Shown here: in pieces, positions 8,940-55,228 of the stretch
Layout of the letters: the number at the start of each line of letters is the position of its first letter
Position numbering within the stretch: position 1 is the stretch's first letter
Assembly (NCBI GenBank): GCA_051362555.1
Contig: CM120645.1
Location: 9,982,001 to 10,046,000, forward strand
Source of the DNA: Lingula anatina
Lineage: Eukaryota; Animalia; Brachiopoda
DNA: 64,000 nucleotides
Reading direction: 5' to 3'
Notes under the pieces: model-generated
The model's database searches: none
What the model was told of the DNA's origin: nothing
Seen by the model: the letters and a program-made list of their open reading frames with translations, nothing else
Translations under genes and position numbers: made by a program

Positions 8940-8971
<32 letters not shown>

Positions 8972-8996
8972 CACACACACACGAACACATGTACAT

Positions 8997-9028
<32 letters not shown>

Positions 9029-9870: not shown

Positions 9871-9902
<32 letters not shown>

Positions 9903-11649
9903 TTATTACAAAAAAAATTATTTCCTCAAACAACAAAAAAATATATTGCAATCACTTTATTGTATTCAGTAAAATCTGAGTCAGTCAGCAGCTGTTCAGA
10001 TGGAGGCAGTTTTCTGTCCTCGCCTACAGTGACATCTAGTGACTGCACCGGAGACTCTCCTCTAGGAGCTTGTGGTGGATCAGACGCCAAGAATTTGACT
10101 GTACGCGAGCTGCTGGGAGGGGCTTTAGCTGACCAGGTAAAGTGTTTGTTTGAATTCACCAGTGCCATCTATTGGTCGTGTCAGAAAGCACTGATCCATA
10201 AAGACTTATTGGAACAGTAAACGAGTTATTGTTGTGTTGACTTTGTAACAATTTAAAGATCTCTTTTACCCCACGGCAGGCACTTCAATAAATTGGATAA
10301 TTGCATATGAACTGTATTTTGCTTACACCCTTGCCTGCACTTTCATATGTTTCAGTGTATGCATCTTATTTTTCTAAGTGGAATAAGTCAATTACAATTA
10401 CTCGCAATCCACTGAATGGGACATATAAAAGATAATTATATCTCTGCTGCGCCTCAATATAATTATACTCTTGTATGTCATACAGTGGACAACCCATGTT
10501 GTAACTAGTACATATAATTAAGACTATTACATTAATAAAGATAATAATAATATTTTTGTTGTTTCATTTATCATAGGATGACCTGCAGATGTTTGCTGTT
10601 GTTCCCTTGCCATGGTGTGAACATCTCAAAATGGTGGCTCCTCTACCAGAGAGAGGCCTGGACGTGTTCGCAGCATGCTCCATGTGTGAAAGCACGAAAG
10701 AAAACTGGGTCTGCCTCACATGTTATGAAGTGAGTAGAGATTTCATAGCACTCTGCAGGTGGAATAGATTTTTGGTTGGTATATAATATAAACAATCTAA
10801 GGAACAAAAGCTTAATCCTGTGTATACATAGTCAGTTTTTTTTTTAATTATAATAATTTTAGTGGTGATTGTTAAGCTGTTTTTCTGTCTCTGCTGTTAG
10901 AATTATTGCCACTCAACCTGTTTTGTACTTTCTAGGTTTGCTGTGGAAGATATGTCAATGAGCACATGCTTTTTCATGGGTTGAGTACAGAACACAAAAT
11001 GGTATTAAGCTATTCAGACCTTTCAGTGTGGTGTTATGGATGTGACGCCTACATACATAATGAGGTAGCTATCATTCCATTTAGACCTGTCTTTGTGGTG
11101 TGATTCTTATTCTCAGTCTTTCTACCAACTGATTTAATCTGGTGTTTTTAATGGGAAATGTCAGTCCAGTTAGACCTGTCTTTCTTCTAGCCTGGAAAAC
11201 CATTAGAAATCAATATTAATTTATTTTTATTGACATTTTAATTATCATTTAGATATTTCATTTTATTATTAAAATGTAGTTCTATACTTCTGCTTTCAAA
11301 TTTTAATTGTTTATAGTAATTTTGTAGCTTACAAGATAAATTACTTATTTGAGGCAGATGTATGATTTATAACTAATCTTTAAGAGAGATTAACCTGGCT
11401 GAGTGATAAATTATTTTCAAAAGTTTCAGTGGTATTTCATATCTATTTAAACATGTATGGAATTTATAGATGTAGAATATAGTCTAAGAGTTTTTATGTA
11501 AACATGTAAACAGCACTGAGGCTCATGAGTAGCTTGGTTTTAAGAAATGAATAATAATTGTTATTATTAATTTATTTTTTTAGATTATAGTGCCACACAA
11601 GAGAGCAGCACACAGAAGCAAGTTTGGAGAGGACATTCCTGGAGTGTGA
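350..11649 (+). CDS. HDAC6: Histone deacetylase 6 (5'-partial, 22 exons): end of catalytic domain 1, catalytic domain 2, C-terminal ZnF-UBP
   Basis: AG/GT-bounded, phase-consistent exons 350-409, 1193-1282, 1591-1697, 2125-2250, 2607-2762, 3046-3099, 3528-3615, 3816-3856, 4512-4608, 6133-6204, 6551-6681, 7030-7098, 7451-7577, 7733-7798, 8061-8120, 8580-8669, 9114-9285, 9492-9599, 9970-10136, 10577-10729, 10936-11064, 11584-11649 (TGA, then AATAAA). Motifs: [15 protein letters not shown] (CD1); [42 protein letters not shown] (CD2); [38 protein letters not shown] (ZnF-UBP). Confidence 0.96.
4834..5914. mobile_element. Non-autonomous TIR DNA transposon (PIF/Harbinger- or Zator-like) in an HDAC6 intron
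   Basis: About 34-bp TIRs GGCCAC(a/c)CTTTTTT..TTTTATGGATGACATCCT at both ends, flanked by TAA on both sides (4831-4833, 5915-5917); CpG-rich interior; no transposase ORF. Confidence 0.85.
6052..6098. repeat. (TAT)n microsatellite
   Basis: Directly visible trinucleotide run. Confidence 0.95.
8925..9027. repeat. (CA)n/(CACG)n microsatellite
   Basis: Directly visible; generates spurious HT/VC-rich ORFs. Confidence 0.95.
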
Positions 11650-18429: not shown

Positions 18430-21400
18430 TCATGATAAACTCTTAATGATCCGCTCCGCCTCGCGTATCCCAGAGTTCCTCGCTCCGTGCATGGTAGAGT
18501 TGAAGGCCACGTCGGTCGCCTCGCCTGCAAAAAGCAGACGAACTTCTCCCCGGTCGTCTGCTACCGGCTCCGCAAGTTTGGCAAAATCCTCAGGAGAGCC
18601 TGGTAGTGTAAGAGCGACGTATGACCCCAGTGTGTACAGGTCCGTCCCCCACTGGGAGCGGATTATCTTGCTCGGTTCCGGGATGGTTTGGTCGCCAAGG
18701 AAAGATCGGAGAATTTCGGTGCATTTTCGACTGACGTCGGCTTCAGGGAGGAGCTCCGCTTGCCGCGCCTCTATGAATCCAGATATCCAGCCTACTAGCA
18801 CGTTGGGATGGGTCGGGTATTCGTCGAATGAAAAGATCCGTTTGTACCACTCCTTATATGGATCTCTGACCACGCCCTCTTCCCCTCTCCACGCCAATTT
18901 AACGCTCCCCAGTTGTCCCCTTTTCCAGAAAGGCTTGTCGTACACGAGGAAAAGTTTATCAACGCAGCCAGCATTTATTTTGTCTATTGCCAACAACTTA
19001 TCCACTGGAAGGGAAGGTTCAAAAATTCTATGGGCGTGTTGTTTCAGGTAACCCAGAGGCACTGTGACTAGACATACGTCTGCCGTGTACGTTTCACCAT
19101 TTGAGCAGACGACAATGACGTCAGCGCGATCCTTGACGTCATTTTTCCACCTAATCTTCGTCACTTCTCGATTAAGTCGAACACACCCGTCTGGTAGATT
19201 ACTCGATAGAGGCTTAAGAACAGATGCCAACCCTTTGGCGACCAGCGCGTCCCCTCCGACTATTTCTGTGAAATTCTCCAAGTCGAGCACCGGCACGTGC
19301 GGAAGATCGCTCCCAACGTAGACCTGTTCGCCATTTTTAATACAATTGAAAATGGCGGCCGCAGTTTCTTGTTCGTCGTCCCGGAATTGCTGTCTCTCCT
19401 CTTCGTATCTCACGCTGAAGTAGTCTTCAACTGTCATTGAAGATTTGTCCTTGCTTGTGCTTGGGGAATAAACCTCGTCACTGATGGTTGTGTAGACCGT
19501 CCAGACTCTGTCGCTCAGTTCTTTGTTGATCTCCAAGCCATCTTGCGTGTAGAATGCGCCGTCTGACAGTCTGAAAATATAATATTATTTATGAACAGTT
19601 CGTCATTTAACAGAATTTCCAAACCGAGAATAACTCATGATACCATAAAACATTTTCACTGTTACACCACCGGGGGAGGGGGGTATATACTGTTTATACG
19701 GTAACACCATATGTGAAACATCGATTTAACTTAGAAAGTTTTAACTTAAGGTTAAAAACTTTAAGAGGAACTTTAAGCCCAAAAACTTAGACCCCCCCCC
19801 TCCACAAACACACACAAGACACAAGATGACTACACCCATCAATAGTATAAAATTATATTATAATGTAAAAATATAAAATATAATATAAAAAAATTAATTA
19901 CTCAATGTAGAGCAAAGACTAAGAAAATGTCGCAAAAAAGACAAAGGGACATAATGATGATATAAATTTATTAAATATCATTGTAACCAAAAGTACAAAG
20001 TTGTTAAAAATATGAGTTCAAATGGAATTCAATAGTTCCATAGTTCTAAGCGCTTTTTTGCAAGTAGGCCTAACGACCATTTATATATCATTTGATATGA
20101 TAAATAGAAAACACTTTTAAATTTAAGTTCACATGCATGTTTGTGGTTACGTTGCCCCCAACAAAACACGCCAATATAAAGGATATGAGATTCTTCAAGA
20201 GTTCATCGTCAATAGGAATTTTGCCTGACAATTTGCTTTTAAAAGCTTATACACTAAAATCACCTTGACTCAGCACTATTTAAAGCACATTTGATTAAGC
20301 ATGCATATCAAACACATGCCACCGGCGTCAAGACAGGGTTGATTTACCGTAAACACCACTGCGTTAAATATAGAGCACCTGATAAGACACGGTGCATTGC
20401 TTTATTGATATACGGCACACCTTAACAAACATGGTCAATCATAAAGCCTAGATTACATTTACACGGGCGCCGTGCGATGAAATATTGTCCGTACGATTTT
20501 TTATGAAATCGTAGGGAGCTATGGGCTACGCTGAGTATGTCTACATTACATGGCCTTAAATCAGTAGGATTCCGTGCGATTTCGCACGGCCACCGTCTAT
20601 ACCTCCGCTCAGACGCCGTACGAAAGGGGCATTACGTGCACCGTAATATAACAAATCACTACACAAATAAAAGGGCGATGAGCAGAATGCAGAAAAGCTG
20701 GTGATCATACGAGTTTAATTGGAAACAAAAGGAAGCGTATTGATCTGACTGCATTCGGCGGGAGTCCCCGTGGAGTTAGTGCGCAGTATCTGGTACCTAG
20801 TACAATAGATTCATTGGGAACGCGCCGTTATTCTAGATCTACACAAACACCGCTGTCCTCACCTTGTGGACAAGAACCCTTCTCTCACGAGGCCATGCTT
20901 CTGTGCCAGAGTGTACACGGAGTTTTCGGCAGTCGTTCCGTGGATATAGTTGGCCCCCAGCTCTATAAGGCCGTCACCCTCCTTTACTGTGTGGATTCTT
21001 CCACCTACCCTGAAACACGTGGTGAACAGGTTATTATTATTTAAAAAAAAATATTATTGTGAGGATGGGAAGGACCGCAGCCACCGTGCGGGAGAGAGGT
21101 AGAAAGCAACGAACATATAGATACTGTATGTTGCCATACTCTGCCATAGTGAGTTTTTAAAGAATTTATTTGGGAAAGGGGGGGGGGGGGGGGGCGGGAA
21201 AAAGGAAGAGAGTAACCTTCTTTCTATAAAATTTAAACGCGTTTAGTAAAAAAGTAATTATACAAGATTTGGCCTATAACAACAGAAGGGTGAACAGAAA
21301 CTACAGAAGGTTTACATTTAGATGTGACGAACGCGTCGAGGGGAGGGGGGGGTAAACGGTAAGGCCTCTATTTGTACATGTATTTGTAGTTGAGGGTGAA

Positions 21401-22100
21401 ATCGGGTCAGTGTATAAATTATTCTGTTGACTTAATATGTTATTTTAAAGACTAGTACTTCAGGTACTTTTCTGAGGCCTGCAAAACAACATGGCCCCGT
21501 AGAATTTCTGTAGAATCTCCACACGATTCCCGATGATATTTCTATTGGGTTTTTGTCCCACAGAATTCCCATAGAGGTGCCGTAGAACAGATGGAATTCC
21601 ATAAGCCGACAAGAAATTTTAGTTAAGGTTTCAAAGTAGTCGGGACCTCAACCAAAACACCAACAGACCATCCTAAACACATTAGGCCTACGAAATAAAA
21701 TGAAATGGGATAAAATAAAGCGCCATCTTTCATTGGCCTACATAATAAAAGATTTATGCACATTAATTAAGGTTATCAAAATAAAAAGGTGAATAAATTT
21801 ATTAATTAATGTGAGGAATATATTGTGCATGTAATAAGAAAATGAAGGTGTTTTATAAAAACACGAAAAGAGCGTCCTATTAAAGCCCAGTGAGCGCCAC
21901 ACGCTCTAAGAACAACAGTATTCTGAGCACGTGCCACGTAGACCTACTGGTGAGGCAGCGTTCGGTACGTACCTGTTTCTTGCCTCCAGAACAACGATGT
22001 CTCGGATGCCTGCACTGATCAAGACGTCTGCCGCGGACAGTCCTGCCATCCCCGCTCCTACGATGATAACCCTGTACTTACCGACGCCAGTGGAATCCAT
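18430..22100 (-). CDS. FAD-dependent polyamine oxidase (spermine oxidase / N1-acetylpolyamine oxidase family), 3 exons, 471 aa
   Basis: Exons 22100-21973, 21009-20863 and 19570-18430 splice in phase. Motifs: VIIVGAGMAGLSAA (FAD binding), LEARNRVGGRIHT, ELGANYIHG, VTVPLGYLK, DKLFL, W..D.YTLGSY, LLFAGEAT..STMHGARNSGIREAERI. SMOX versus PAOX orthology cannot be resolved by eye. Confidence 0.93.
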
Positions 22101-22273
22101 ATTTGTTGCCACTGGGGAGCTGGGTTTTATGTCAAATACGGTAGCTATATTATATTGGCTGGTTAAGCGGCGGTGAATGCCGCGATATATTGACTGGAGT
22201 GTGGGTCGAGTCATGTCAGGTCAAGAGATGGCGGATTGTGTTATCCAAGGCCAATATCTAGATGCCATACCAG

Positions 22274-26765: not shown

Positions 26766-27779
26766 CTATTCAAATCTTCAAATTCAAGGTATACAGTACA
26801 TGTATAATAAATAACTACATCAAATCAGAGTTTTCTATATGCAATATATGTCCACGCATCATGCAGGGGACTAATATACACATTTAACAAGTACATCTTT
26901 AGAAGAGAGAACACTTATGACAATGCACAGCACATACATGTACGACACCACATGTATGTACAGGTAGACAAATCATATTCTGGTAAAATGCCAACATACA
27001 CCTCATAGCTCCAGCTGCATTCTTAACCAAGTTTCCAGAGACAAGGAAGACCCAGGGCAGGGGGCGGGTAAGGGGGGGTTCAAAGGGTTTGAACAAGCAC
27101 CTTTTTTGGCAGGGGAAAAAGTCCACTAGTTCCTTGTAAAATTGATCTACTGGTAGGTACATTATGGTTAAAGTCCCCCCCCCCTATGAACTAGCTGGCT
27201 ACAGGCCTTAATTCTCAGTCTGATGTTAACTGGTGCTTTGTAAAGAAATTGATTCAGACTATATGCAGAATAAAAATATTGTAGATGTGTTAAAACATTT
27301 AGTATAAATACACACACACTATGCAATAGAGAGATTTATCTATAAAATATTGAAAAAGCACTGATATAAAAAAACTATTACTCTTACACAAAAGACAGAA
27401 CTCCAAGCATTTCACTTCCTTGTTATAATAACTAAGTCAATTTGCCACATTAGGATTATGTCCAATGATATGATGCCACTGGTATCCTGAAGAGTTTCAC
27501 ATAATCCATGTGCCTTGGTCGAAAATCAATAGGTAAGTCTCTTGAAATTCTTAAGTCAGCCCTGTGTAAACTTTACTGCGTTCCTAGTTTTGGCATATGC
27601 ACAAAGCTACTAATCATACTTATGGTTTGTGTAGAATATATGCATTACTTGCATTTTTGTTTGAAAATGGTTGAATATAGAAAACGTACAATTTTTTTCA
27701 CAATGTACATCAACGTAACTGCCAGGAAATTAGTTGCATTGTCAGACAACTGCTGGTCAAAACGGCAATTTTCCCGTAC

Positions 27780-27886
27780 TCACCAATGGTCAATGACCCT
27801 ATTCCTGCATTCAAAGTTAGTCCAGGTTTTTTCCTAAACGCTTGGTTTTTTGTTAAAATCTCTTAAGAGATTTTAACTGACAGAGC
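27780..27886 (-). mobile_element. End of a dispersed repeat carrying a 26-bp perfect palindrome; inverted copy starts at about 39641
   Basis: GTTAAAATCTCTTAAGAGATTTTAAC occurs at about 27852 and 39645, with homologous flanks (AAAAAACCAAGC..GACTAACTTTGAATG). Confidence 0.7.
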
Positions 27887-28426
27887 CCTCTCTGACATAT
27901 TAAATAGTCACGTGATATCGAGCGGGGTTTTCTGATGACCTACCGGGTACATAAATCCGAGGGAAAAGCAGACAACAACAACACTTTATTACAATAAAAT
28001 AAGATTCATACGATATAATCATCTTATTGCTCAGAATGCATTTACACTGTATATCTACAATGTGTGCAGTTCTGGGCTTTTCATTATCCGACACACTGTA
28101 CAAAAACTCGCAACTTACGTCTGAGGATTGTGTCATGCACCTGCTATATCTTATCCAGCCACATGTTATTTTGGTCTCGAATGCACGCGAGAATCCGCGT
28201 GATGCACCAACATCCTTGGCAACGAATGCCTTGACGACCGGGAAGAAAGGCACCGAAAGCCCTATTGTCAAGCACAGTTTTTAGTTTCACTACAATAACA
28301 GCCGTTTTAGTGTTGAAATGCAATATAGTAAATATTTATGTGTTGTTTAGAATGTATTTCTTGCAGAATTTTGAATCTCAAAGGAAGAGTTATTATTGCT
28401 TTAATGTTGAGACCTGATCATGAAGA

Positions 28427-29517
28427 TTAGTTTGTTTCCATATCATTTTCCTCCCTCTGTGGAATCTGTGGTGGCTTGTAAATACAAGCTTTTATCTGAT
28501 GTAGTGAAGGGTGGATCCTAGAAACAATGCTTCTCTGCACATTAAACGGTTCCAAAACTGAACCAACTACAATTCCAATGATACACATTTGGCCATTAAG
28601 CAATTTCACAAACACCGCAGATCCAGAGTCCCCTTTCTGAGAAAATGGCTTATCATGTGTGGCATAAACATTTATCATATTTTTAAATCTTTCACTATGA
28701 CCAGATGTCTTATCCACAAAGGTAATCTCTCTGCAACAAGCAACCCCAAGGCCGAGTTTTCCCTCTGTCCACCCAGTGGTTTTTCCATATTTGTATGCCA
28801 AGGCATGCTCAGGAAGCAGATCTACGTGTCTAGTAACCACATCATTGAACGTTTCAAGTGATTCTAATGGAAATAAGTTGCCTTTGGCATTCTTATGCAA
28901 TTGCACGAGTGCTATGTCTACACCACATTTAATCACATTGCCATCCCCATCATCATGTTCAACATTACCTACATAGCATTTGCTAACAATGCCACATCTT
29001 TTAAAATTGTTTTCAACAAAAACAGGAGTGCCAATTACTGTTTCAGGACGTCTATCATAAGGGCAAAATACATGGGAACATGTAACAAATGCCTTTGGCC
29101 TGGTTGAGGCATGGTTACCCTCATCTTTCTCCACAAATAAACCAAGACTACCAGATTTATCAGAACCTACAGCACTTCCAATATACAACTCACAATGATC
29201 ATCTCTGTTTCCTTCATTGTCAGCATGAAGTACAAATGTTCCTTGCCTGACTTCAACTGGATATTCCTGAAGTTTTTTTGGAAAGTCTGAAATATTAGTC
29301 ATGTCACTGCAGTATATTGCAATGCAAGGACTGCTCTTTCCATCTTCATCTGCTTGTTCTCTTGAAAGAGAGATATCTATACACGAGATGTTGGAAAATT
29401 GATCAAATAGTTCATCACAATTCTTTTCGATGATAGCTCCCATTTTCTTCCTTTCATCACGGGAAATGAGCTCTCTTGTCATCATATCTAAGACTTCTTT
29501 CTCCACGGTTCTTTCAG
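28427..29517 (-). CDS. Terminal exon: Nal1/Ssy5-like trypsin-fold serine protease with N-terminal accessory domain
   Basis: GSLGLFV, FVTCSHV (His), VDIALVQL (Asp), [24 protein letters not shown] (Ser), IIGIVVG; upstream [21 protein letters not shown] resembles the Nal1-type N-domain. Confidence 0.88.
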
Positions 29518-32500
29518 CTATGAAGAAAGAATCAGAAATAAAGCAATATGACCAAGATAATATATACATTTAGATACAATGTTTAGCATTAAAATATAAT
29601 CAAAATTTACTTAATTGATACTTTGAAACGCTACAATATTTAGAAGAAATTTAGAGTAAAACAAAAATATGATTTGGTAGTTATGGGGCAAATGTCACCA
29701 ATATTGTGCAAAAAAACAGTCTGAGAATAATTACCATAAATGTAAACAGATCATGCTGACTTTAGAAAGCAACCTGCTTCTTTGCCAAACAAAGCCACTC
29801 AGCAAATTTAAAGTAAAACAAAATTATTGAAACCCAGGGGCAACACCAGGGCCAGAAACTTTCAAAATTCAGTTCTTGGTGAAAAGTGGCTCAATGGTCA
29901 ATTTCAAGGTCACTGTAAGATTGGCAGTAAATGACTTCCTATTCAAGTTCAAAAGTAACTAAGGACTTATCTCTAATTGTAACCCCTCACCATAACATGA
30001 GAGCTTAGGTCTGTGTAGTGTCTGAAAATTGGCACAAACAAAATTTTTTTGCAGAAAATTCCCATTTTTAGAACATTTTGGCCCTTTTGACCTTGAAATA
30101 AAAGTCAAAGTTCAAATCCAAGGGCATATTTGGAATCTCCACATATGACTGTTGGGCAGACTTCAAAATTCGAATCCCAACTCCACTAAAATTTCCAAAT
30201 TACCCATGAACATTATTTATGATTGGTCTATCAAACCCAAAAGTTTGACCTGTATTTTACATATGTTGATCAATCCTCAAAGTTTTACGACAGTAGGCTC
30301 CATCAGTTTTCCTTGAAATGCATACTTTTTGAAAAATAATTCAATCATGCAGATTTTCAAACAAGACCTATATTTTATCAATATTCATCAGTGCTGCAAT
30401 TTTAAAGAGGGGAAGAAAGCAGAAAATCCAACTCAAACACCACGGTATCAAGGAATTTTCAGCAAACAAAAACAGGAAATCAATGATTTAATAAGGCTTT
30501 TTAAAATTTATGTTTCATGAGCCTGTAGAGCTTCATGGTAATTTACCTTCAGTATCACTTGGTAATGTAGTGACAGGTGGAGTAACACCATGCTCCTGTA
30601 GAAAAAAAGAAACCCTGGTGATCAGATAGTTAGATTATTCATTTATTTACAAGACAAATGCAATTCACTAAGATACATTTAATATTTATGTACAAGTTAT
30701 GACTGAGCTATGCTTCCATTACATATTTTCATAACTTACCTTCTCACTTGTGCCTGGCATAAACCATAGTCTGTACACTGAATCCTCTGGCATCCCACAT
30801 TCTGTGAGATCAGTCTCTTTAGGATCTATTGCCATCAGTTCATCTCTGACCTTTGGCTTTCTTGGGTCTCTGACACACCATTCTAACTGCAAATGTGGGC
30901 AAACAGTCTGCTTAACTTGCTGAATTTGGTTTAAGACATGGTTCTTCCACTTCACATATGCCTCTCGGATTGTTCTGTCAAACTTTGTCCCTGTGGGATA
31001 TAAAGGGATCAGTTCAATGCAAGAGGATTTTGCTGACTTTCTCAAAGCACAACGTGCTCTTCTTCGTGGATCAATTGCAAAAACAGCATAATCATAATAC
31101 AGCTCATTTTGAATGAGAAAAAAGTCCCCTCTTCTTCTTAATCCTTTCCTACTTGAAGATGTGTCATTTTGGGCTAATTTTGATGTAAGCTGGTTGAAAA
31201 GCACATGTGGCATAAAGTTCTCTTTCCCTTGTATGAAAAGTGTTCCTTCACTGCCAACCAATTCCGGATTCTTGCATATCTGGAGTAAGCTGGGCACATA
31301 GAACTGTCGAAAAGTAGGCTTTTCTGCTGTACCTGGCTTGATGTCCTGTTGCAAAAGAATGTTGAATTGCACCATAACACCGATTAAAATGGGCTTCAAC
31401 TCACTGTCATCTCCCCAAAGCTCATCCAAAAGTCTTTCATCTAGGATGCCCCTCTTTAATGCAGACCAATATGGAGTCCCTTTGGTTTTGACATGGTGTT
31501 TATCAACTGCTATAATAGACCTGAATGCGTCTATCAGCCACAGTGGATTCAAAATGACTATGTCTGAGAGATCATCAGTCTGAAAGTGCATAAGATCTCC
31601 AATGTCATGATGGAACTGGAGGAATGACTTCAGCTCAATGGCATCCTGCATTCCAACTTTAAGAGCTAATTTTTGCAGCTCCTCATACTTTATCCACCTT
31701 TTTTCTCGTTTCTCAGGTGCTTGACGCAGCTGAAGATCTTCTTCTAATCTAATCCATCTTATTGGATTCTTCTCTCCCCAAGATTTTTGGCTTTCAGCAA
31801 TTTTCATAACATATCGACGGAGATCTGATATTTCTTGATCTTCATCTTGACATGTGTTGTCAATTGCAAAGAAACGAGGATCAACATGCACACCACTTTT
31901 CTTCTGTTGTATATGATGCCGCAATTTAGCAAAGTACGCATTTATTTCTTCTTCATGCTATAAGAGAATGGGAGAAACAGTTTTTCAACACATTGTAAGC
32001 TGCAATCACATATTCTATCAATCATCATAATTGCTTTTTTTCAGAACAGTTTAAATTTTTTTTATTTTTTGTTTCAGTAATTATGCCTACCTTTTCTTTG
32101 GGAACATTTTCCAGGAATTTGTCTTTATGCGTGCAAGCGATGATTATTCGGGGAGACAATACCCCATCTTCACTTAGGTTTTGCTGTGGTGCATAAGTAT
32201 GGATTATGTCTATCCAATAATAAGTGAAGTCTGGAAATATATCAGACAAAATTCAAAATGTACTTTAGTAACATTTTTTTTGCTGTTTGAACTGTTTGAG
32301 TACAGAAAGATGTCTGGTTATATGATAACTTTTTAATATTCTTAAGGCAAAATATATTATTCATATTTAGCAAAAATATTTACTTGTAAGAGCAAATTCT
32401 GGACAAGGATGCATTGTGATGAGCACCACACCTAGACCAGTGCACCTTCACAGGGGCGGATTTAGGCCGTCTTCTAGGTCTTACAGAAGACGGTCAGATT

Positions 32501-35500
32501 ATTAAGTTTACTTTGACGGGTATCTTATATTTTCTGTCAGAAGACGGTCAAAAACTGAGGACGAATTAACAAAGATAATTTGGAAGACTGTAAGAAAATA
32601 TCTCTGGATCCGCCCCTGCTTCAGATAACAAAATTTACATGGATTGAGTTGAGATCATATGTGGCCTATATCCAAGAGATGGGTACACAGGCCCTTGAAG
32701 TCTAGGAGGACAAGTGGTGATGGTGTATGGCAGCAAATACAGCGGATATGGTGGACAAGATGGGACGGGGCTAAAACCACGTGTTCCGGCAGTGTTTACA
32801 CTGGTGTTACAATTATAGTTGACATTTCATAACTGCTAGCTGGTATTTAACAACATAATTGGTAGTGAAATGATTTTATAAACATAAAAGCCCTTTCCGT
32901 TAAAACGCTTGTAATGAGCCATGAATTTCATACTGCTCTTAAATTTCAAAAATCTTAAAATTAATTTTGACCAGTAAGCAGTTTTGCGGGATCTTGATTT
33001 TCCTGAATCTCACACACCTTAAAATCAGCAATTGAGCTATTTTTGTGCTCAAAAAGCCCTAGCCTGCATTTACCCAAGTGCTGTGTGGCCCAAGGTGCAA
33101 GATAACGATCGGTACAGTTAGCTTTGGATGCTAAACAACATTGTCATCACAATTCATTAAGATAACAAGAGAATCTATAAAGAGTTGCACTGTCACTCTG
33201 TCGTTTCTTAACCGGAGTACTTGGCGTGAGATAGCAATCGGTAGTTTTTCTGAGGCGCACATTAGCATTGCCAACAGTAGGGACTTCAGTAACAGAACAA
33301 AAGAAGCAATTAACAGCTGCAATTAAGATTACCATTATTGCTTTCTTGTCTCACTCAGATTGTTCACGATCTCCTGCTGAACATCCCCCGCTAATGAAAT
33401 CCCTTGAACAAATATGAAAACTGCCTTCTCATTTCGATCTCCTGCTGATGATCTTCCGCTAACAAAGTCCCCTAAACAAATATAAAAATTGCCTTCTAGC
33501 ATGGACAAAATTTCCAAGCTTCTAGGCTTGCTTGGATCGATGAAGATCTCCTGCTGATGAATACAGCAACAAAGTCCCTTGAACTAGTATGGAAATTGCC
33601 TTATCGTCACGCTCAGATCGCTCACGATCTCCCTTGACGAACTTCCAGTCCCTTGAACGAATATGAAAATGGCCTTTCTGTCTCATTAGGTGTACCAAGA
33701 TTCTTTTCAAAAATCAAGACAAGTTTCTGGCTGATAGAATGACTTTCAAAAAAATTACACTACTGATAACAATGCTGTTTTGCATCCCTAGCCAACAGTA
33801 CCGCTCATTATCTAGCACCTTGGGCCGTACGTGTATCCCTTGGGTTGCAAATACTGACACTCACCCATCATACATTATGGTAACTGTAAATAGATCATTG
33901 GGGGAAGATAACATAAGGTCTAGCGACAAACAGACAACTTCTGGTCAAAATTGACAGAATTCCATGAAATTGAAATGCTTGGAAGTTCTGAGCACCTCCA
34001 TTTCATGAATTTCGACCAAAATAATCTTTTCCCAAATTTAATTATTTTTTACTTTACAAAATTCATGGCACATTAGCGTATATACTCACTAGCTGACAAA
34101 CAGTTGTGAGCTGGTGGGTGTCTTACCAAGAATAGTTCCTGAGAAGTGTTCAGCTCCTTGCCATTGGTCATCTAGCCTGTCTGTTAAAGCAAGGCTCATA
34201 TCAATGGCAAGAATGTAAATAGCTCTGGAAGAAAGGAATGTGTGGTGGGTGTTGTAATACACACTTTGCCCTCCAAAATCCCAGACTGCTAGACGAGCTG
34301 GTGGATTTTCAATGTCGTACGAGCTTTCTGTCAAATGTTTTAAGACATCAGGCGGGAGCTCCAAAGCCTCCTTGGAACTACTAGGGCTGGGCTGATGTTC
34401 TTAAAATATAAATGAACAAAGTTCACATGTTTCAGTATTAAAAAAGATTAAAGACAAATTTAATCATTTAAATGTATGAACTACAGTATAAAGCTAGAGG
34501 GTTGTACATGGTGATGGCTTGATCATTTAATCAGAAAAATAATTTTGGAATAACTAAAAATTACTAAGTAAATAAAGCATTTTGGTGCTTTTACTGTATA
34601 AAATGGTCTGCTTTTCAATTGTGCTGCTACCACTCAATAGGAATGTACGAAGTTAATGAATTTATAACATAAAAAACAGAATCTTTTAAATTCACAATTT
34701 TCCCTTTTTGAAATGATCAAGCCATTAAATTATGCAATAACATGCTTTGCTAAAGTGGGTGAGACACATTTAGGATAAAACATTTTGCCACCTTTCCTTT
34801 ACCAATTTTTACATAGTTGACAAGGAATTTTAACATAATATGTAGCACATAGAGACACCCAGTATAATACTGCATGGTGTATTCGTTGTCTTGTGTTATT
34901 GTCATACTAATTTTGATCAAGGGAAAATGGACCACCTGCCGCACTGTGCATCCTAATCTGATATTGCATAATGATGGAAGTTAATTATAAGTTAAGAAAA
35001 TTGTAACAAATGTTTAAATTTGAAAGAACCTACTGTACCCCTTTCCTTCTCATGTTATACTAAAATTTGTCCTTCCATTTCATCTTCGAGTCTTAGAAAA
35101 ACTTACCATAAAAAAAGAAATAAACACCATGATATGCCATTAAAGCAAATTGGAAAAAAATGGCATAACTTAAGAAATTTGCAAAAATGGTCTGATCATG
35201 CTGATCTATGAACTTCACCTGTATTTTTGTAAGATTTATCACTCCTGTGAGTTTCAAGACAATATGCCTATCGGTTTTCTTGAAATGTGTTATAAGTGAC
35301 ACATAAATGCTGAAAAAAGGCCCAACATGCTGATTGTTGACCTTGACTTGTATTTAAGGAATATTCATCAGTTCAGTAAGTATGAAGACAAAGGGTGAAT
35401 TCCCAGAGTTTTAGATTGATCCAGAGATTTAGGCTTCGTTCACATGCAATGTCTATTTTCTAAATTCTATTTTCTCGCGCTATCTTATGATCACGGTCTG

Positions 35501-38500
35501 TGCCCTGAATATCCCGCCGCGTAATTACTAGCAGCGCGAGCCAGTTACTTATAGTAACTTATAGTAACTGGCTCGCGTTGCCAGTAATTACGCCGCTGCC
35601 AGTAATTACGATATTCAGTGCACAGACCGTGATCATAAGACATACCGCGAATAGAAAATAGAATTTAGAAAATAGACATTGCATGTGAATGAAGCCTTAG
35701 ATTTAGATGGACCTAACTCCCTGGGGGTTCACGCTAAATTGCAGTCAGCCGAGCGCACACCCCTACAGCTTTAAGTAGGCGGGACAGACGCTTAAGCTGG
35801 CTAAGCTAGTGAGACTCTCCACAGGGACAGATCGATCTAAAATCTATGGAAATGGGGTCAAAAGGTGAAAATGTGAAATGTTTTTCCACTTATCGTGGTA
35901 CTATATATCACTGATATATGCAGTTATATTTCTGCTAGATAAATCTGTCTGCCAGCTGAAAACAAAAGTGGATGGCCTTGGAGAAATATTAGTTTAGATG
36001 ATGTTGGGTGCTACCACTGTGCTCCTATATTTTGTTCATAGTGATCAATACCATCTTTATCTGAACAGACGGGCTTCTTTGTTAGGCACAAGCAGGCAAG
36101 GACAAATGTGAACAAAAATTGACTCTCATCTCTCATAAGACCTCATGTTGATGAAGGACATGATGTTATTTCAGCCAGTTACATGCACACAGCTTTGTCT
36201 TCATCTGGAGTTATCAGACTGCCATGCAGCTGTTGTGGAAAATAGGGAAAGGTGCACAGTCAATTTGAATTTTCACTGTATAAGTGACAGGTCCTATGTC
36301 AGCTGCCTTAAGCCATGATAGTGTTCCAGTTGGTTGAGGACTGAAGCAAGTTGGAGGATAAAGAGATTCTCTAGTCAAGTCATTTCTTCTCAGTGAATTT
36401 AAGAAACGAATTACATCAGAAAAGAAAAAAGATCCAACTGCTGCCTTTCAAGAAATGTTGAATAAAAAACAAACATGAAACTGTTCAACAAGGATGCTTG
36501 GCTGAATGTTCATCAAACCATTGGTTATTTTTTCATGTTTAAATATTATAATGAAGAAGCAAAGAAGAATGCCCTCTAGAGGCAAACATTAAAGAAACAG
36601 ATCAAGGAAATGTTAGGTTTATGAAAAGACAAATATACATAATAGGCTTTTTTAGTTTAACTTAATTCTGTGGCCACATAAATTCTAGATATTTTAGCAC
36701 AGTGTCATTCTGCTAAGAGCAGATTATAAATAAGTCAATTTTTTTCATTGGGTTTTTTAAAACTTGTGATGATGTATATAATGTACATATAAGATGTGTA
36801 GAATGTGACCCTGTATAAGTATTTGCACTAGAAGTTTTCAGTCGAGTGAATGGCTGTTGTCTTTTTAATTTCTCATAGTTGATCATGGTGCCTTTTTATT
36901 TTTTAAATCATAATAAACATATATTTTTTCTTTTAAAGCAATTAAGTTTTCTTTGAACAAGAGATGGAAATATTTAAACAAGGCAGCAAAGCTGTCAAAT
37001 GTACAGACAAAAGACAGGAAATAACTATGCACAAAATAGGCTACTGTCAATTCTGATGCTAAAGTACATTATGTTAAACTGCAAATTCAACATCAAATTT
37101 TAATTATGCTCAACAGGTAATACCAATGTAAGTAAAATGTGTAACAAGTTCACACTTTGAAAATATATAACTTCCAGAAAAAGAAGCCAATTAGACTGCT
37201 TTTCCAACTCATAAGTAACATGGCAATCATAAGTAACATGGTTTTCCCATGATGGTCATCATGGCAGCAGCACCCAAAATTGTGTTTTCTTCTATTCTGA
37301 TGCAATATTACATAATGGTTAACAGCATAATGACTGTCAATTTTTAATAATAAAATATACGTATCATGGATTTTCAGAAAAAATGACTAGCATGGGTCTT
37401 CAAGCCCGTGGAACTTCAAATTCACACCATGAAAATGCCAATATGTGAAAAATTAAATTTTCACAAAAAAAAAAAAAACGTTTTACTGGCAGTAAGAATT
37501 ACCAAACAGACTGCATTGCCTACTGAAGCTGTATTTTAGTCCCATGTTTCTTTCCTGTAAGTTTGAGAACAGTAAGTGACATGGTTTTTCTTAAATGGTC
37601 ATCATGGGAGCAGTGCCCAAAATAGTTTTTTTTTTTAAATTTTGATGCAATATTACATAATGTTTAACAGCAAAATGACCATCAATTTTAATAATAAAAT
37701 ATTAGTATTATGGATATTCAGAAAATGTGACTAGCAAAGGTCTTCAGGCCCTTGGAACTTCAAAGTCACAACTTGAAAATGCCAAAATGTAAACAAGACA
37801 GCAATGTTCTGAAATGTTTTTTTTTCCAGTTTTAACAATTTCTAACATAAAACAAAATTAACAGTTTACTATCGTTTTTATATGATCAACTAAGAAAATT
37901 GATGAAATGGGAAAAATATTAATAGAGCAGTGTTAAATGTCCAATTTCTTCCATTCTGAGATTCTGAACATAGTGAATGATTGAATCTGACAAACTGCAA
38001 TGATATGAGTTTATTTCCATTTTTGAAACTTTATTACACAATACACATTAAAAAGTTTACCATTATTTTTACATAATCAAATAATGATGTTGTAAAGATG
38101 CAGGAAATGCCAAACAAACACTTTTACGTATCTTATTAATTAAAAATTGAAACTGTTAACATGCCTAAGAATTTAATCTGAGGAAATGTGAAAAAACGGC
38201 ATTTCTTTAAAATAATGGCCCGATTATGCTGATTTTCGAACTCAACCTGCGTTTTAGTAAGATTGACCACTCCTGTGAGTTTAATGACAATTGGCCTATC
38301 TGTTTTTCTTATATTGTGTTTACAGTGTTGCATATATGCTGAAAAATGAAAAAACAGCATAACTACTAAAATAGTGGCCCGATCATGCGGATTTTCGAAC
38401 TTGACCTGCGTTTTAGTAAGATTGATTACTCCTGTGAGTTTCATGACAACTGGCCTAACGGTTTTCCTTAAAATGTGTTTACAGGGTTGCATATATGCTG

Positions 38501-41289
38501 AAAAGTGAAAAAACAGCATAACTTCTACAATAATGGCCCGATCATGCTGTTTTTTTAACTTGACCTGCGTTTTATGAATATTCATCAGCTCTGTAAATAT
38601 AAAGCCAAAAAGTAAAACTGCCCTCCACTTATCGTGTTTGAAGGAAAGTGCATGGCGACGGCATCGGCGACGGCGCCGACAGACGCAGGTGATGGCAATA
38701 TGTACAGACACATCTGTGTCTGTACATAAAAACAAACATCATTTAAATTGCATCTGAATTGAGTGTTTCAATAAAACAATAAGTTAAACTTGAAAAGTCC
38801 ATAATATGATCTGGGCTCCATCTTTTGGGGACAGGGAAACTGGGTCCCTTGCTACTAACCTCCCAAACAAATTGTGGACCTTTTATATTTATTTTATTTT
38901 TATTTTTTTGTAACCCAAACTTATCGGAGAGTTGAAATCTAACCCATTTAATAAGTGGTAAGACCACAGTTCAAATGTACCCCGTATTTGAGAGTTTGAA
39001 ATGGATGAAGTATGGCACTTTGTACAGAATCTTAATGGGGGTGCTAATATTACACAACCAAGGTAGCATTATGCAACAGTCATAGGGCTCATTCCTGATA
39101 AAACTTTTGTTCTAGGTAGACCTATCCAACTCCAGGGGTACTCTGGCTGAATGCTATCAGATATACACCCACCTACAGGTACAGTACTTGCATTGAGTAG
39201 AATACAGAAAAGATGGTGATGGTAAGAATGCATAGGAAACAAGAAGAGACGTGATAGTCTGTTAACCTGATTGCACTCAGCAAGAGTACCCGTGGGGTTG
39301 GATTGATCAAGGTAGAATGAAAGCATCATTGAGAATGTGCCCATAGCACTGGCTAGCCCATATTTTTTACATTTTTACCACATTTTGAGAGGTATCCAAT
39401 TTTTCACACATTTCCTTGAGTGGCCCCAGCTTAAAGATCACTATGTCCAAGTTTAAAAGTCTTCAAATTACTTAAAGGGATAATAACTCTTCATATGAGA
39501 TCTGTATTTCACAGTAAAAACATTGTGAATAACTCATGGAAATATAATATATTCTGTTTTACCACAAAAATGGCAGTTATAGCTATTATTCTGATTTCTG
39601 AGCTTGTCTTTAGACCACGTGACCTCCACTGATGGCTATACTCTGTTAAAATCTCTTAAGAGATTTTAACAAAAAACCAAGCTTTTTAGAAAAAAACCAG
39701 GGACTAACTTTGAATGTAAAAATGGATTCATTAACCATTGGTTAGTATGGAAAAATTGTTGTTTACTCTAGGAAAATTCATTTTTTAGCCGAAACGAAGA
39801 GCTTTAATCCCTTTAAATAAACATATGTTGAAATTTTTTAAATACATTTGTTATGTTTATTTGGGGAAACACTTCTTATTATAGTAACAAATTCCACTGG
39901 ATGAAGTGCATTCCACCTGCATAGGCAGTGAGGAAAGACAAAAAGTAGGTCAAAAATCTCTATTTTCTAGGGCATATATCTCCCAACCCATAAAAGGTGC
40001 AGTAATATTTTTTTTTAAATTGATAAAACTATTAGTATATCCTTTGTTGATAATCGTGCCAAGTTTCATGAGTCTCCCCCCCGATCCCATATTTTTGCCA
40101 AGAATGGATATTTTTTCATTTTACTTCACAGAAGCTTATAACTTCTTAGGACACATCTTCACACCAATTTGGTTGAATTTCTCGTTAAATGGCACTTAAT
40201 TAGCTCATTTAATATTCATGTGACCGGGTCATTATGTCATCAACGGAAATTTCAACTCTTTACATTAAGACCCTGGTATCTGAACGAGGGAATGAAACTA
40301 CATGCTTGCTGTGGTTTCATTGTCCCGCGAGTCTGGAGGAAACAAAACAAGATTGGGTCATAACATCTGTGATTACATGCATGCTCAGATGACAGGATGT
40401 CTTTACACATTGTTGTTTAATAAAAAGCAGACTATTTCAGATGTTTAAATACTGAAAATGAAAAATTTGTTTAGATAGCTTTGTAATTAAGTTGAAAACA
40501 GAGTAAAGCACAACAACCCGTTTTCTTCACCCAGCAAAATTTGTGACAAAGTAATTTTTTTTCAAGTGTGTGGGTTAAATGATCCCTGATATGATGAAAA
40601 AAAACATGACAATACTTTACTGAGAGCTTTCTTTTCCGTAATGAATAGCTACAAAATGGCCTGGTATATCTGTCTCCCAGATTAAAGCGCTGTATTAGTG
40701 TCATTTTCCGCTAATAATTAAAAAGTTTAAAATACAATGTTTGGGAACACAAATTTGTTTGTTATAATATGACAAATCTAACACGTATAGGAATATTTTG
40801 ACAGACTTTCAAAGATGATAACCCCTTGCTGTTACCCAGTATTGTGGAAGTGCAGACATATATATATATATAATGTGATACTCACCTCCAAGCGAAAAAA
40901 ACAGCTTCTTTTCAAAATCAGTATCATTGCATCTGATATGAGTCAAGTGCCGCATATTTCTGGGTAAATCCTCAAGGGAGGCATCCAGCAGGATAGGGAC
41001 AACGATGTCTTCACTCATCTCGGCAGCATAATGCAGCGCCATATTTCTTTCCTGCTTGCACCAAGGACTTGTAAGAAAGTCCTTGGAAAGAAAACAAATG
41101 ATGTACGTGCATTTTTCGAGGGCTTCATTAATACAAGTCACTGTTGAAGTACCTGGGCGGAAATCTCGTTTTGAGTAGCAGCAGCTGACTCCCCTTTTCT
41201 CCAATGTGTCCATGACACTTTCCACAAATTCAGCATCAACATTACTGTGGGCCAAAAATGCATCATACTTGTCTTTGTAAAGTACTTGC
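28427..41289 (-). CDS. Multidomain Roco-family protein: TIR - ROC (G3-G5) - COR - Nal1/Ssy5-like trypsin-fold serine protease (5'-partial, about 1057 aa)
   Basis: Exons 41289-40886, 34399-34127, 32230-32091, 31957-30740, 30595-30547 and 29517-28427 all have AG/GT boundaries and matching phases (1,1,0,0,1), giving one open frame to the stop at 28427. The TIR-to-ROC junction spans a 6.5-kb intron and is the least certain link. Confidence 0.8.
30740..31957 (-). CDS. Exon encoding ROC G5 region and COR domain
   Basis: FFAIDN (G5), [63 protein letters not shown] are typical COR motifs. Confidence 0.9.
32091..32230 (-). CDS. Exon encoding ROC G4
   Basis: YWIDIIH...[11 protein letters not shown] matches the ROC G4 consensus P.IIVGTH.D. 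Confidence 0.88.
32400..32815 (+). mobile_element. Degenerate 3' end of HINE family B with a 168-bp TIR mini-element inserted (32451-32618)
   Basis: Homologous to 48958-49209 (CCACACCTAGACC, GAGTTGAGAT, ATCCAAGAGATGGGTAC, TCTAGGAGGA). The insert has TIR CAGGGGCGGAT/ATCCGCCCCTG with CTTCA on both flanks. Another family B fragment lies at about 29860-30150. Confidence 0.75.
34127..34399 (-). CDS. Exon encoding ROC G3/switch II
   Basis: [33 protein letters not shown] is the ROC hallmark WDF.GQ..YY.TH..FL...A.Y.L..D. Confidence 0.92.
35432..35696. mobile_element. Hairpin MITE (PIF/Harbinger-like) with TTA target duplication, nested in an older MITE
   Basis: GGCTTCGTTCACATGCAATGTCTATTTTCTAAATTCTATTTTC.. 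is inverted at the right end; TTA at 35429-35431 and 35697-35699. Confidence 0.88.
36977..38730 (+). mobile_element. HINE family A element
   Basis: Starts AACAAGGCAGCAAAGCTGTCAAATGTACAGACA; ends with (GACGGC)n plus ATGTACAGACACATCTGTGTCTGTACAT hairpin; about 160-bp internal repeats. Confidence 0.85.
40886..41289 (-). CDS. Exon encoding a TIR domain (TIR_2-like)
   Basis: KYDAFLAHS (box 1), [10 protein letters not shown] (BB loop), [28 protein letters not shown] (alphaC Glu), [17 protein letters not shown]. Confidence 0.93.
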
Positions 41290-41998: not shown

Positions 41999-44900
41999 AA
42001 CAAGGCAGCAAAGCTGTCAAATGTACAGACAAAAAAACAGAAAAAAAAGATGCAAAATAGGTCATTTTGATTCAATAATAAATGCTTATAATAGCAGTCA
42101 GTCAACACTGATTTTTAATCATGCACAACAGGTAACATGGTCAATAACAGGAGCAGATTCAGAGATATTTTCTGACAGTATTCCAAAGTATCTTTGTTGA
42201 TCCATCCTCCATTTTGATAGTCTTCCAACAGAAACCCATTAATATAAACTTTAAAATCTGGCTGTCTTCCAGGAGACCCAGAAGATGGTCTCAATCCACC
42301 CTTTCAATAAGATTACAATGTCAGGACCATGAGAGTTAAAATTCACATGATGAAAGTCCCTATATATGAAAAATGATGACAGTGCATAAAATAATATTAC
42401 AGCGTGTTTAAAGACATAAATACCAATACAGCTGCTTATGTGGAAATACTGAAAATGTGCAGAGCCTCAGGTGGATGGGAGCTAAAAATCACATCTTAAA
42501 AATGCCAGTGTTGGAGAAAAAATGAAATAGAAACAACAAAAATATAATTCCAATGAAGCTGTTATTCACTGCTTCCTTATTATGGACACTATGTTATCTA
42601 GCAGAGAGCTTAACAGGGAAATATCAACAAGTGTGCTTTATGAAATTTCAATTAATGGCTACTTAATTAGGTAAATGAGTTTATAGCACTGAAATTAGCC
42701 TTGTGAATACCAAAGGGGAATTAACAGACTGACCACACAAATTTGTCTATCAAAGGTCTTCAGGCCCATAAGTCACACCTTAAGAAAAGCAGAAAACAAT
42801 AATGCACAAAAACAGGAGACTGCCCAATTCTGATGCAATAATACATTATGTTTAACTGCACAGTCAACATAAAATTTTAATTATGTACAACAGGTAACGC
42901 TGATGAAAGTAAAAGCATAAGGCTCCAGGCCCATCAGAGTTCAAGTTTTCAATTAGAAAGTGCCAGAATGAGAAAAATGAAAATTTCACAAAAAATGCAT
43001 AAATTTAATAAAAATGATAACCCAATTGACCTGGCTTTCTAATTTTAACTGCATGCCAATCCTAAAAATCATACTTATAAGTTAAATATAATAATAAGTA
43101 ACACAGTTTTCTTTTCGTAATGTTTGCAGTAGCAGTGCAAAAAGATTATTGTCAATTTTGATGTAACATTACATAATAAATTATAGAATAATTATCACCA
43201 ATTTTTGATTATTGACTATAAATAGCATGGACATGTAGAAAATTTGATTACCATTAGGCTTCATGTCCATGGGAGCTCCGAGTCCCACAATGAATATGCC
43301 AAAAAGATAATGAATATTTCACTAAGTGTATAACTTCCAGAAAAAGAAGCCAATTAGACTGCTTTTCCAACTCGGGCTGCATTTTAGTCCTGTGTTTCTT
43401 TTTTGAAAGATTGACAGTAATAAGTAACACGGTTTTCCCATAATGGTCATCATGGCAGCAGCACCAAATATTGTGTTTTCTTCTATTTTGATGCAACATT
43501 ACATAATGATTAACAGCATAATGACCATCAATTTTTAATGATAAAATATACGTGTCATGGATTTTCAGAAAATGTGACCAGCAAGGGTCTTCAAGCCCAT
43601 GGAGGTTCTAAGTCGCACCTTGAAAATGTCAATAAGTGAAAAATTAAATTTTCACAAAAAACTGTTAAATTGCCAGAAAAATTTACCAAACAGACTGCAT
43701 TGCCTACTGAAGCTGTATTTTAGTCCCATGTTTCTTTCCTATAAGTTTGAGAACAGTAAGTGACATGATTTTCCTTAAATGGTCATCATGGGAGCAGTGC
43801 CCAAAATAGGGGTTTCTTCAAATTTTGATGCAACATTACATAATGTTTAACAGCATAATGACCATCAATTTTTAATTATAAAATATTAGTATCACGGATA
43901 TTCAGAAAATGTAACTAGCAAAAGTCTTCAGGCCCATGGAACTTCAAAGTCACATACTGAAAATGCCAAAATGTAAACAAGACAGCACTGTTCTGAAATG
44001 GGTTTATTTCCATTTTTAACACTTTTTTAACATAAAACAAAATAAACAGTTTACTGCCATTTTTATAAGACCAATGAAGAAAATTGATGAGATGGGAAAA
44101 GTATCAATAGAACAGTGTTAAATGTTCAACTTCCTCCATTCTGAGATTCTGAACATAGTGGATGAATGCATCTGACAAACTGCAATGATATGAGTTTATT
44201 TCCATTTTTGACACTTTATTACACAATACATGATAACAAGTTTACCATCACTTTTACAAAATCAACTAACAATGTTGTAAAGATGTAGGAAATGTCAAAC
44301 ACTTTTACGTATCTTATTAGTTCAATAATGAGACTGTTAACATGCCTTAGAATTGAATGTAAGGAAATGTGAAAAAACAGCATGACTTCTAAAATAATGA
44401 ACTGATTATGCTGATTTTCAAACTCAACCTGCGTTTTAGTAAGATTGGCCCCTCCTGTGAGTATAATGACAATTGGCCTAACTGTTTTTCTTATATTGTG
44501 TTATCAGTGTTGCATATATACTGAAAAAAGTGAAAAAACAGCATAAATTCCCTATAAGTGACCCGATCGTGCTGATTTTCGAACTTGACCTGCGTATTAT
44601 GAATATTTATCAGTTCTGTAAGTTTCAAGCCAAAAGGTAAAATGGTTTTCCAATTATCGTGTTATCGGTGCTGCATATATGCTGAAAAAAAGAGAAAAAA
44701 TAGCCTAAATTCACTAAAAATGACCCAATCACGCTGATTTTCGAACTTGACCTGCGTATTATGTATATTCATCAGTTCTGTAAGTTTCAAGCCAAAAGGT
44801 AAAATGGTTTTCCACTTATCGTGTTATCGGTGCTGCATATATGCTTAAAAAAGTGAAAAAACAGCATAAATTCCCTATAAGTGACCCGATCATGCTGATT

Positions 44901-45460
44901 TTCGAACTCGACCTGCGTATTATGAATATTCATCAGTTCTGTAAGTTTCAAACAAAAAGAAAAAACAGTTTTCCACTTATTGTGTTATCGGTAAAAGTGC
45001 ACGGCGACGGCGACGACGGCAACGACAGCGACGACAGACGCAGATGACGGCTATATGTACAGACACATCTGTGTCTGTACATAAAAACAGCATAACTTCC
45101 CTAAAAATGGCCTGATCATGCTGAATTTCGAACTTGACCTGCGTATTATGAATATTCATCAGTTTTATAAGTTTCAAGCCAAAAAGTAAAACGGTTTTCC
45201 ACTTATCGTGTTATCAGTGCTGCATATATGCTGAAAAAAGTGAAAAAACAGCATAACTTCCCTAAAAATGACCCGATCATGCTGATTTTCGAACTTGACC
45301 TGCGGATTATGAATATTCATCAGTTCTGTAAATTTGAATACAAAATGTAAAACGGTATTCCACTTATCGTGTTATCACTGAGTGCACGGCGACGGCGACG
45401 GCGACGACAAACGCAGGTGACGGCTATATGTACAGACACATCTGTGTCTGTACATAAAAA
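41999..45460 (+). mobile_element. Long HINE family A element with duplicated 3' end
   Basis: Same termini as other family A copies; microsatellite plus hairpin occurs twice (about 45001-45085 and 45385-45460). Confidence 0.85.
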
Positions 45461-45535
45461 GCAATGATGAATATTTCAGAACATGCCAGATACTTTTGGA
45501 GACAGTTATGACAGTGTCTACTATTCAGAAGATGA

Positions 45536-55182: not shown

Positions 55183-55228
55183 ATATAATTCCAATGAAGA
55201 TGCTATTCAAACATTTAATCTTCCAGTT

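Follow-up and report, generated by a model that had tools for sequence, protein, structure and literature searches.

A predicted NAL1-type serine protease at the C-terminal end of a TIR-Roc-COR gene model in the brachiopod Lingula anatina

Introduction

The alpha-lytic/SGPB family (PDB 2ALP, 3SGB, 2PRO, 3PRO) comprises secreted bacterial proteases that carry signal peptides and whose pro region has two parts; in alpha-lytic protease, the pro region is both folding catalyst and inhibitor. In animals, caspases or kinases are the established end points of signalling by NLR, death-fold and ROCO proteins. Rice NAL1 (NAL1_N PF25608 and Nal1_C PF25819; PDB 8PMI, 7Y77) is a stand-alone cytosolic cage protease composed of an NTD (residues 1–88), an ABD and a serine protease domain (SPD). 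According to the available part of its structural report, the ABD binds ATP structurally and its contacts with the SPD build a trimer, while a swap of N-terminal strands stacks two trimers and orders the catalytic triad, the hexamer being required for activity (PMC12012508). Yeast Ssy5 (MEROPS S64, PF08192) is a cytosolic signalling protease with an alpha-lytic-like catalytic domain, as the accessible portions of two papers describe it (PMC6761765, PMC12958826), and is held inactive by its prodomain (PMC6761765).

Proteases have also been reported as effectors of ROCO proteins. In the available excerpts of two surveys, bacterial LRR-Roc(AP-GTPase)-COR-trypsin proteins and brown-algal group 3 ROCOs carry a PA-clan protease in a variable effector slot after COR, the bacterial ones with trypsin effectors at this position (PMC8195603, PMC11378527), and NucA-fused trypsins are described in bacterial conflict systems in the part of a third that is at hand (PMC7159879). 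Among molluscs, TIR occurs with Roc/COR in one protein of Aplysia, and no C-terminal protease is reported for it in the accessible text (PMC9334734). A fungal survey contains, in its available part, a weak S64 match in Crassostrea that its own authors doubted (PMC5567314). Our literature searches brought up no account of the animal family presented here, though the supplementary domain tables of three of these papers (PMC8195603, PMC7159879, PMC11378527) could list such fusions.

In this work, we have analysed a stretch of 64,000 nucleotides from Lingula anatina (hereafter the window), in which an original prediction from the sequence had placed an intronless protease module of NAL1/Ssy5 type.

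Results and Discussion

The protease exon

The module occupies a terminal exon at 28427..29517 on the minus strand, which has 1,091 nt including the TAA, is entered in phase 1, and encodes a pro-like N-domain followed by a predicted chymotrypsin-fold serine protease. Residues are numbered in the exon protein (P0001), whose residue 1 is the codon at 29515. All the motifs quoted in the original prediction have been found in a single frame, the minus-strand ORF 29569..28427: CIAIYC (residues 64–69) and PVEVRQG (86–92) as pieces of the N-domain, GSLGLFV (122–128), a further protease motif at 242–252, and the triad motifs TCSH with His148, GVDIALV with Asp200 and FSQKGDSGS (291–299) with Ser297. 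The three residues follow each other in chymotrypsin order. The IVGG activation motif, whose absence had been claimed, is indeed lacking in the exon protein, and the single 1.09-kb exon after a phase-1 intron is also borne out. Its acceptor is a pyrimidine-rich TAG (...tctttcttcatag/CT, the exon starting at 29517), and the 49-nt exon upstream ends in GAA G/gtaaat, so that the intron between them is of phase 1. On the other hand, the lack of a signal peptide says little here, since this is the last exon and not the N-terminus; the cytosolic reading rests instead on the TIR, Roc and COR exons upstream, none of which had been named before.

The N-domain covers residues 16–92 (29240..29470, minus strand) and the protease domain residues 108–348 (28472..29194, minus strand), the latter a predicted double beta-barrel closest to the NAL1 SPD and to alpha-lytic/SGPB proteases. 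The predicted catalytic residues are, all on the minus strand, His148 (29072..29074), which is aligned with the TNRH motif of NAL1, Asp200 (28916..28918) as the acid, and Ser297 in GDSG (28625..28627) as the nucleophile, aligned with the GDSG of NAL1. The stop codon comes 14 residues past the protease domain with no PDZ in between, and a possible polyadenylation signal, ATTAAA, lies 22 nt past the stop (28400..28405, minus strand; a consensus match).

Family and fold assignment

Searches with the single sequence are nearly blind for this protein. P0001 alone matches only Peptidase_S64 in Pfam, and this below the gathering score (E 0.034, 13.1 bits vs 23.6) and only over the C-terminal 75 profile positions. 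It has no match to PF00089 at E<=1 and none to Trypsin_2, phmmer against the PDB returns only an acetamidase (E 0.51), and a single-sequence search for near relatives returned none. When 1.84 billion representatives were searched with a two-sequence profile, 257 relatives came out at E<=0.001; the best 150 of these were analysed, and 80 family members were aligned (alignment A2). In A2, His148 and GDSG are invariant (80/80), and GDSG is held in 115 of the 116 matches that reach the Ser region. Column 200 shows Asp in 63 members and Glu in the other 17, a replacement of the catalytic Asp that is unusual in chymotrypsin-fold proteases.

With the profile of the 80 members, rice NAL1 is found in the PDB at E 2e-13, while trypsin reaches E 0.07. 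Pfam over the same members (E<=0.1) gives Nal1_C in 39, Peptidase_S64 in 25, Trypsin_2 in 11 and Trypsin in 3; P0001 itself stays below the Nal1_C cut-off, with no such match at this threshold, and some relatives pass the Peptidase_S64 cut-off (e.g. P0003, 1.3e-6). The AlphaFold2 model of the exon protein (pLDDT 86.3) has NAL1 as its first Foldseek match (E 4.6e-14), and in the VIA structure comparison its residues 16–350 lie on NAL1 90–449 (Z 25.8, 300 residues), PA-clan chains overall matching at Z 10–26 and SGPB and alpha-lytic protease matching the catalytic domain at Z 18.7–19.1 (rmsd 2.3–2.7). In a wide search over 48,161 representatives, NAL1 (Z 25.3) is followed by the alpha-lytic type (18.8–15.8), by Deg/HtrA (<=13.6; Deg1 13.6) and by S1A chains (10–10.7; TMPRSS2 10.7), with FAM111A (8s9k) at Z 10.4 and rank 31. 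In addition, neighbours in the ESM Atlas (score 0.96–0.98), mostly bacterial and one from a plant, have Nal1_C, NAL1_N or S64 in some members. The comparison with NAL1 which the original prediction had proposed thus came out as expected there, and neither the best profile matches nor the closest folds belong to S1A, HtrA or FAM111.

The model predicts a PA-clan serine protease with a double beta-barrel, which would work like NAL1, Ssy5 and the alpha-lytic proteases, yet stands outside plant NAL1 (no NTD) and outside S64 (below the cut-off). With rice NAL1 it shares the layout of ABD and serine protease domain, the H-D-S triad, the K.G.T[TS]G.T.G and F...GDSG motifs, the lack of IVGG and the predicted cytosolic location; it differs in its sequence (15–17% identity), in a replaced lysine of the N-domain, and in its place at the C-terminal end of a ROCO gene model, NAL1 being a stand-alone cage protease. 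Unlike Ssy5, it has neither a long disordered phosphodegron prodomain nor the SPS sensor context. Unlike the alpha-lytic/SGPB enzymes, it has a single pro-like unit and is encoded by an exon that is flanked by an intron and follows cytosolic domains. HtrA/Deg differs from it by the PDZ and Trypsin_2 match that the exon protein lacks, and the secreted S1A trypsins by IVGG and PF00089.

The N-domain

In the whole-module structure alignment, the modelled N-domain overlays the NAL1 ABD. When it is folded alone (pLDDT 80.5), Foldseek ranks 1–4 are taken by pro region chains of alpha-lytic protease (3pro/2pro), as weak matches (E 0.064–0.094, probability 0.85–0.91). VIA likewise gives the alpha-lytic pro region Z 5.0 (rmsd 2.4, 62 residues, rank 3 of 48,161), a value tied with a designed protein and with ribosomal S3 KH domains, against Z 3.7 for NAL1. 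The likeness to the pro region agrees with the second-best match of the catalytic domain and with the reported resemblance of Ssy5 to alpha-lytic protease. Considering these models, the autoinhibitory N-domain of the original prediction is plausible, while the overlaid domain in NAL1 is structural and not inhibitory as far as the available text goes, which counts against it (PMC12012508). At the likely self-cleavage position after the DVREG motif, a small residue is present in 63 of 117 sequences vs a background of 22%, a modest enrichment, and the window has His.

We regard it as unlikely that the N-domain works in the NAL1 mode, assembling the module, with no inhibition, into a trimer or cage for the breakdown of regulatory proteins, so that Roc-COR and TIR would only localise the enzyme or choose its substrate. 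Such a mode would suit the best match of the whole module, ABD included, to NAL1, the ESM Atlas neighbours with both NAL1_N and Nal1_C, and the contribution of the ABD to the trimer within the required hexamer, as described in the accessible part of PMC12012508. It fits less well with the missing NTD on which the hexamer depends: the alignment starts at NAL1 residue 90, and a linker and COR stand upstream instead. In addition, where 73 of the 80 aligned members have a lysine, which may be equivalent to the ATP-binding K139 of NAL1, the window has Met72, and the isolated N-domain is closer to the alpha-lytic pro region than to NAL1. One N-domain would thus connect NAL1, Ssy5 and alpha-lytic protease, enzymes that have been studied apart from each other, and it becomes possible to ask directly whether this domain inhibits, assembles or does both.

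Two side observations concern this part of the protein. Most of the relatives P0004–P0151 have an extra conserved domain with no Pfam name, ~95 residues upstream of the N-domain; 93 of 100 match its own profile, a circular count, and it is absent in the window, P0002 and P0003. Its reading as a second pro-like copy was not supported (hhalign probability 0.8), a clear duplicate existing only in P0089. Moreover, for residues 570–760 of the Lingula protein P0009, the nearest ESM Atlas clusters include stand-alone proteins of 89–116 aa, many from tailed phages, with NAL1_N in 13–15% of members (scores 0.81–0.84; leads only). If the N-domain is a pro-region inhibitor, such phage proteins could inhibit bacterial NAL1-like defence proteases.

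The surrounding TIR-Roc-COR gene model

In the gene model assembled from splice sites and frames, the protease exon is the C-terminal module of a TIR-Roc-COR gene and not a lone gene. Upstream of it on the minus strand we have identified a 49-nt linker exon (30547..30595; phase 0 in and phase 1 out, canonical splice sites and frame, with the length and register of the P0009 linker), a COR exon of 1,218 nt (30740..31957; Pfam COR-A E 9.3e-20, 74.6% identity to P0009), an exon for the C-terminal part of Roc with a G4-like THKD (32091..32230; 78.7% identity to P0009), a Roc exon with WDFGGQ (G3) (34127..34399; Pfam Roc E 4.7e-7), and a TIR exon of 404 nt (40886..41289; Pfam TIR_2 E 3.6e-23) that is frame-compatible with the Roc exon. 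All five have AG/GT ends and can be joined with the protease exon into one open frame, with strong donor scores (7.0–12.1), and COR follows directly after Roc. The five exons from Roc to the stop give 922 codons with one stop. With TIR added, the frame is still open (1,058 codons, 1 stop); a phase match alone has ~1 chance in 3, and we infer the TIR-Roc joining with this in mind.

Within the 64-kb window, no P-loop (G1/G2) exon has come to light, whether by regular expressions applied to both strands, by Pfam searches of 140 frames, by tblastn of the N-half of a scallop Roc or by an exon scan, and no start codon or convincing first exon was found. An inversion hiding the P-loop exon on the plus strand was considered and rejected, there being no P-loop at 22.2–27.8 kb. 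The in-frame TIR exon sits where the G1/G2 part of Roc is expected (34400–64000, minus strand). Either the product is a TIR-COR protein without a P-loop, or TIR is inserted within Roc and G1 lies beyond the window; the gene in the window may be incomplete, and a GTP switch of its Roc is putative. Compared with the bacterial and algal ROCO peptidases, the present case is found in animals, with independent fusions, has TIR upstream and shows no P-loop in the window.

For the RNA evidence, four of nine listed raw-read runs of the same label were mapped at 92% likeness. In the stranded runs, reads from the strand of the gene cover Roc and COR (depth up to 33.6), and the Roc-COR joint 31957/32091 is spliced in 52 reads from 3 of 4 runs. 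These reads carry many differences from the window sequence, and their probable source is a paralogue. The TIR exon has a depth of ~1–2, while the protease exon has 0 at 28534–29000 and <=0.51 at 29001–29467 in all four runs, and neither the COR-linker-protease joint nor the TIR-Roc joint is among the 15 joints listed out of 195. As a separate observation, runs X4, X5 and X7 show over 30740–34399 an expressed near-copy of Roc-COR that is ~5% different, with no matching reads on this protease exon; it is possibly a paralogue with another C-terminal effector.

Such data raise the possibility of a 5'-truncated or silent duplicate in a multi-copy ROCO family, where the module would be real in the family and no working protein would be made here. 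The near absence of RNA on the protease exon, the missing P-loop exon and start codon, and the mostly repetitive sequence at 41.3–64 kb are what such a copy would leave. Against this, 922 codons run unbroken from Roc to the stop, the donors are strong and the triad residues are intact; P0009, a gene model of Lingula, starts at this Roc exon too; and only ~6–25% of each run was read, from individuals apparently other than the assembled one. We consider a silent copy rather improbable, slightly more so than the NAL1 mode.

Relatives, fusion partners and module swapping

The closest relative is the Lingula LRR protein P0002, with 52% identity over 95% of the exon (E 5.9e-100). Thirty relatives were looked up, and the 20 that carry names are all from Lingula or bivalves: six from Lingula anatina, eight from Mercenaria, three from scallops and three from Saccostrea, i.e., from one brachiopod and three bivalve groups. 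Among the best 150 of 257 relatives, 18 have a recognised additional N-terminal domain, which always stands N-terminal of the protease. In seven of these it is an NTPase or death-fold scaffold: Roc-COR twice (P0009, and P0103 as ANK-Roc-COR with an intact P-loop), CARD-NACHT (P0010), DUF4559-NACHT (P0084), nSTAND3 (P0073), DED (P0013) and CARD (P0047). The remaining fusions are seven with repeats only (LRR in P0002, ankyrin in four, NHL, pentapeptide), three with DUF4559 and one with ubiquitin; one further relative has a C-terminal DUF1664. As 131 of the best 150 have no other Pfam domain, many of them looking like partial gene calls, fusions to immune scaffolds make up a minority.

Scaffold and protease show discordant relationships. 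P0009 and the window are 76.7% identical over Roc-COR-linker, with the 16-residue linker in register, while their proteases are 27% identical (local); the protease of P0009 is 58–65% identical to those of P0010 and P0006, and that of the window has its closest relative in P0002. We have computed a 25-row LG+G4 tree and a FastTree on 126 rows, in which six isoform rows and partial matches were left out. In the former, the window groups with P0002 (100/98) and P0003 (100/100), and the latter agrees on this grouping. A grouping of the window and P0009 proteases is rejected (AU p 0.00024), and the three proteases fused to Roc-COR cannot be placed in a single clade either (p 7e-34). This discordance indicates module swapping, and together with the variety of scaffolds it upholds the shuffled module of the original prediction. 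For P0009, the protein sequence suggests that the switch of protease took place at the same phase-1 junction.

Based on the above analyses, we favour, with a probability of roughly 0.55, a latent cytosolic protease of NAL1/alpha-lytic type that is activated by clustering and serves as an exchangeable effector in immune or cell-death signalling. The predicted His-Asp-Ser protease would be held latent by its own pro-like N-domain, which may chaperone folding and block the active site as do the pro regions of alpha-lytic protease and Ssy5. COR dimerisation or TIR assembly might replace the N-terminal strand swap of NAL1, with its trimer stacking and triad ordering; clustering of the scaffold would then switch the protease on, and its cleavage of a host target would serve immune signalling or cell death. 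The module would be a caspase-like effector whose phase-1 exon is passed between scaffolds of NLR, ROCO, death-fold and repeat type.

More tentatively, and with somewhat less than even odds, brachiopods and bivalves may have a caspase-independent, intracellular protease arm of innate immunity. In it, an expanded family of NAL1/alpha-lytic proteases with a built-in pro-domain would move as a phase-1 exon between NLR, ROCO, DED, CARD and repeat sensors, and induced proximity would set the enzymes off. The locus in the window would be a TIR-COR version that has lost its P-loop, and the NAL1 ABD a retained alpha-lytic pro region. A NAL1-type serine protease, familiar from plants, yeast and bacteria, in the slot of caspases or kinases in two animal phyla would be an added effector class. 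It would suggest a function for many "uncharacterized" proteins of oyster, clam, scallop and Lingula, and would bear on shellfish immunity.

Origin of the module and the surrounding DNA

Nothing has been found in support of the lateral acquisition that the original prediction considered. An intronless exon is no sign of transfer here, because COR, in this same gene, is likewise encoded by one unbroken exon of 1,218 nt, because 31 of the best 150 relatives stop at profile positions 202–228, where the gene calls seem to have ended at an intron, and because family members occur in a brachiopod as well as in three groups of bivalves. The composition is unremarkable as well (GC3 0.31 in the protease exon vs 0.37 in COR). 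In searches for relatives, none of 85 pattern matches in prokaryote genomes and none of 142 in viral contigs was confirmed with the two-sequence alignment, which sees close relatives only, and with PADLOC, too, no protease was matched.

If a conflict-system trypsin of NucA-trypsin type had recently passed from bacteria into this animal and were still intronless, this would be in line with the sharing of both domains with the NucA-trypsins (hhalign probability 98.2, E 3.7e-14), with the bacterial clusters at the head of the ESM Atlas list, and with the bacterial Roc-COR-trypsin fusions described in the available part of PMC8195603. We consider such a recent transfer highly improbable: the nearest relatives are animal, while the bacterial ones are only 16–25% identical; in the 25-row tree, the 20 non-prokaryote-like rows stand together on one side (97/93); the family occurs in Lingula, clam, scallops and oyster; the composition is unremarkable; and the COR exon is intronless too. 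An ancient transfer, before the split of brachiopods and molluscs, is conceivable, and the trees, computed on rows other than NAL1 and Ssy5, point to no donor.

The flanking sequence is ordinary animal DNA, judging from the repeat-rich introns and from a flavin amine oxidase gene at 18430–22220 (minus strand; Amino_oxidase E 1.1e-47), which is likely a polyamine/spermine oxidase with a long last coding exon. At 27760–28404 and 39472–39801 there are opposite-orientation copies of a short repeat, likely of MITE type, with an internal palindrome of 26–28 nt and heavy coverage in the RNA reads; the idea that they are two ends of one element was rejected, as they are copies of a dispersed, highly read repeat. 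Two likely non-autonomous DNA transposons with terminal inverted repeats lie in the Roc introns (33087–33826, 63 nt, 84%; 35431–35697, 45 nt, 98%). Upstream of the gene, 36900–38740, 42000–48500 and 51000–64000 consist of tandem arrays (159-nt and ~345-nt units) and larger repeated blocks, with several spurious ORFs. Finally, short exons are present on the plus strand at ~7300–10750, whose motifs we take to be those of a histone deacetylase with ZnF-UBP (HDAC6-like); Pfam on the single frames tested did not confirm this.
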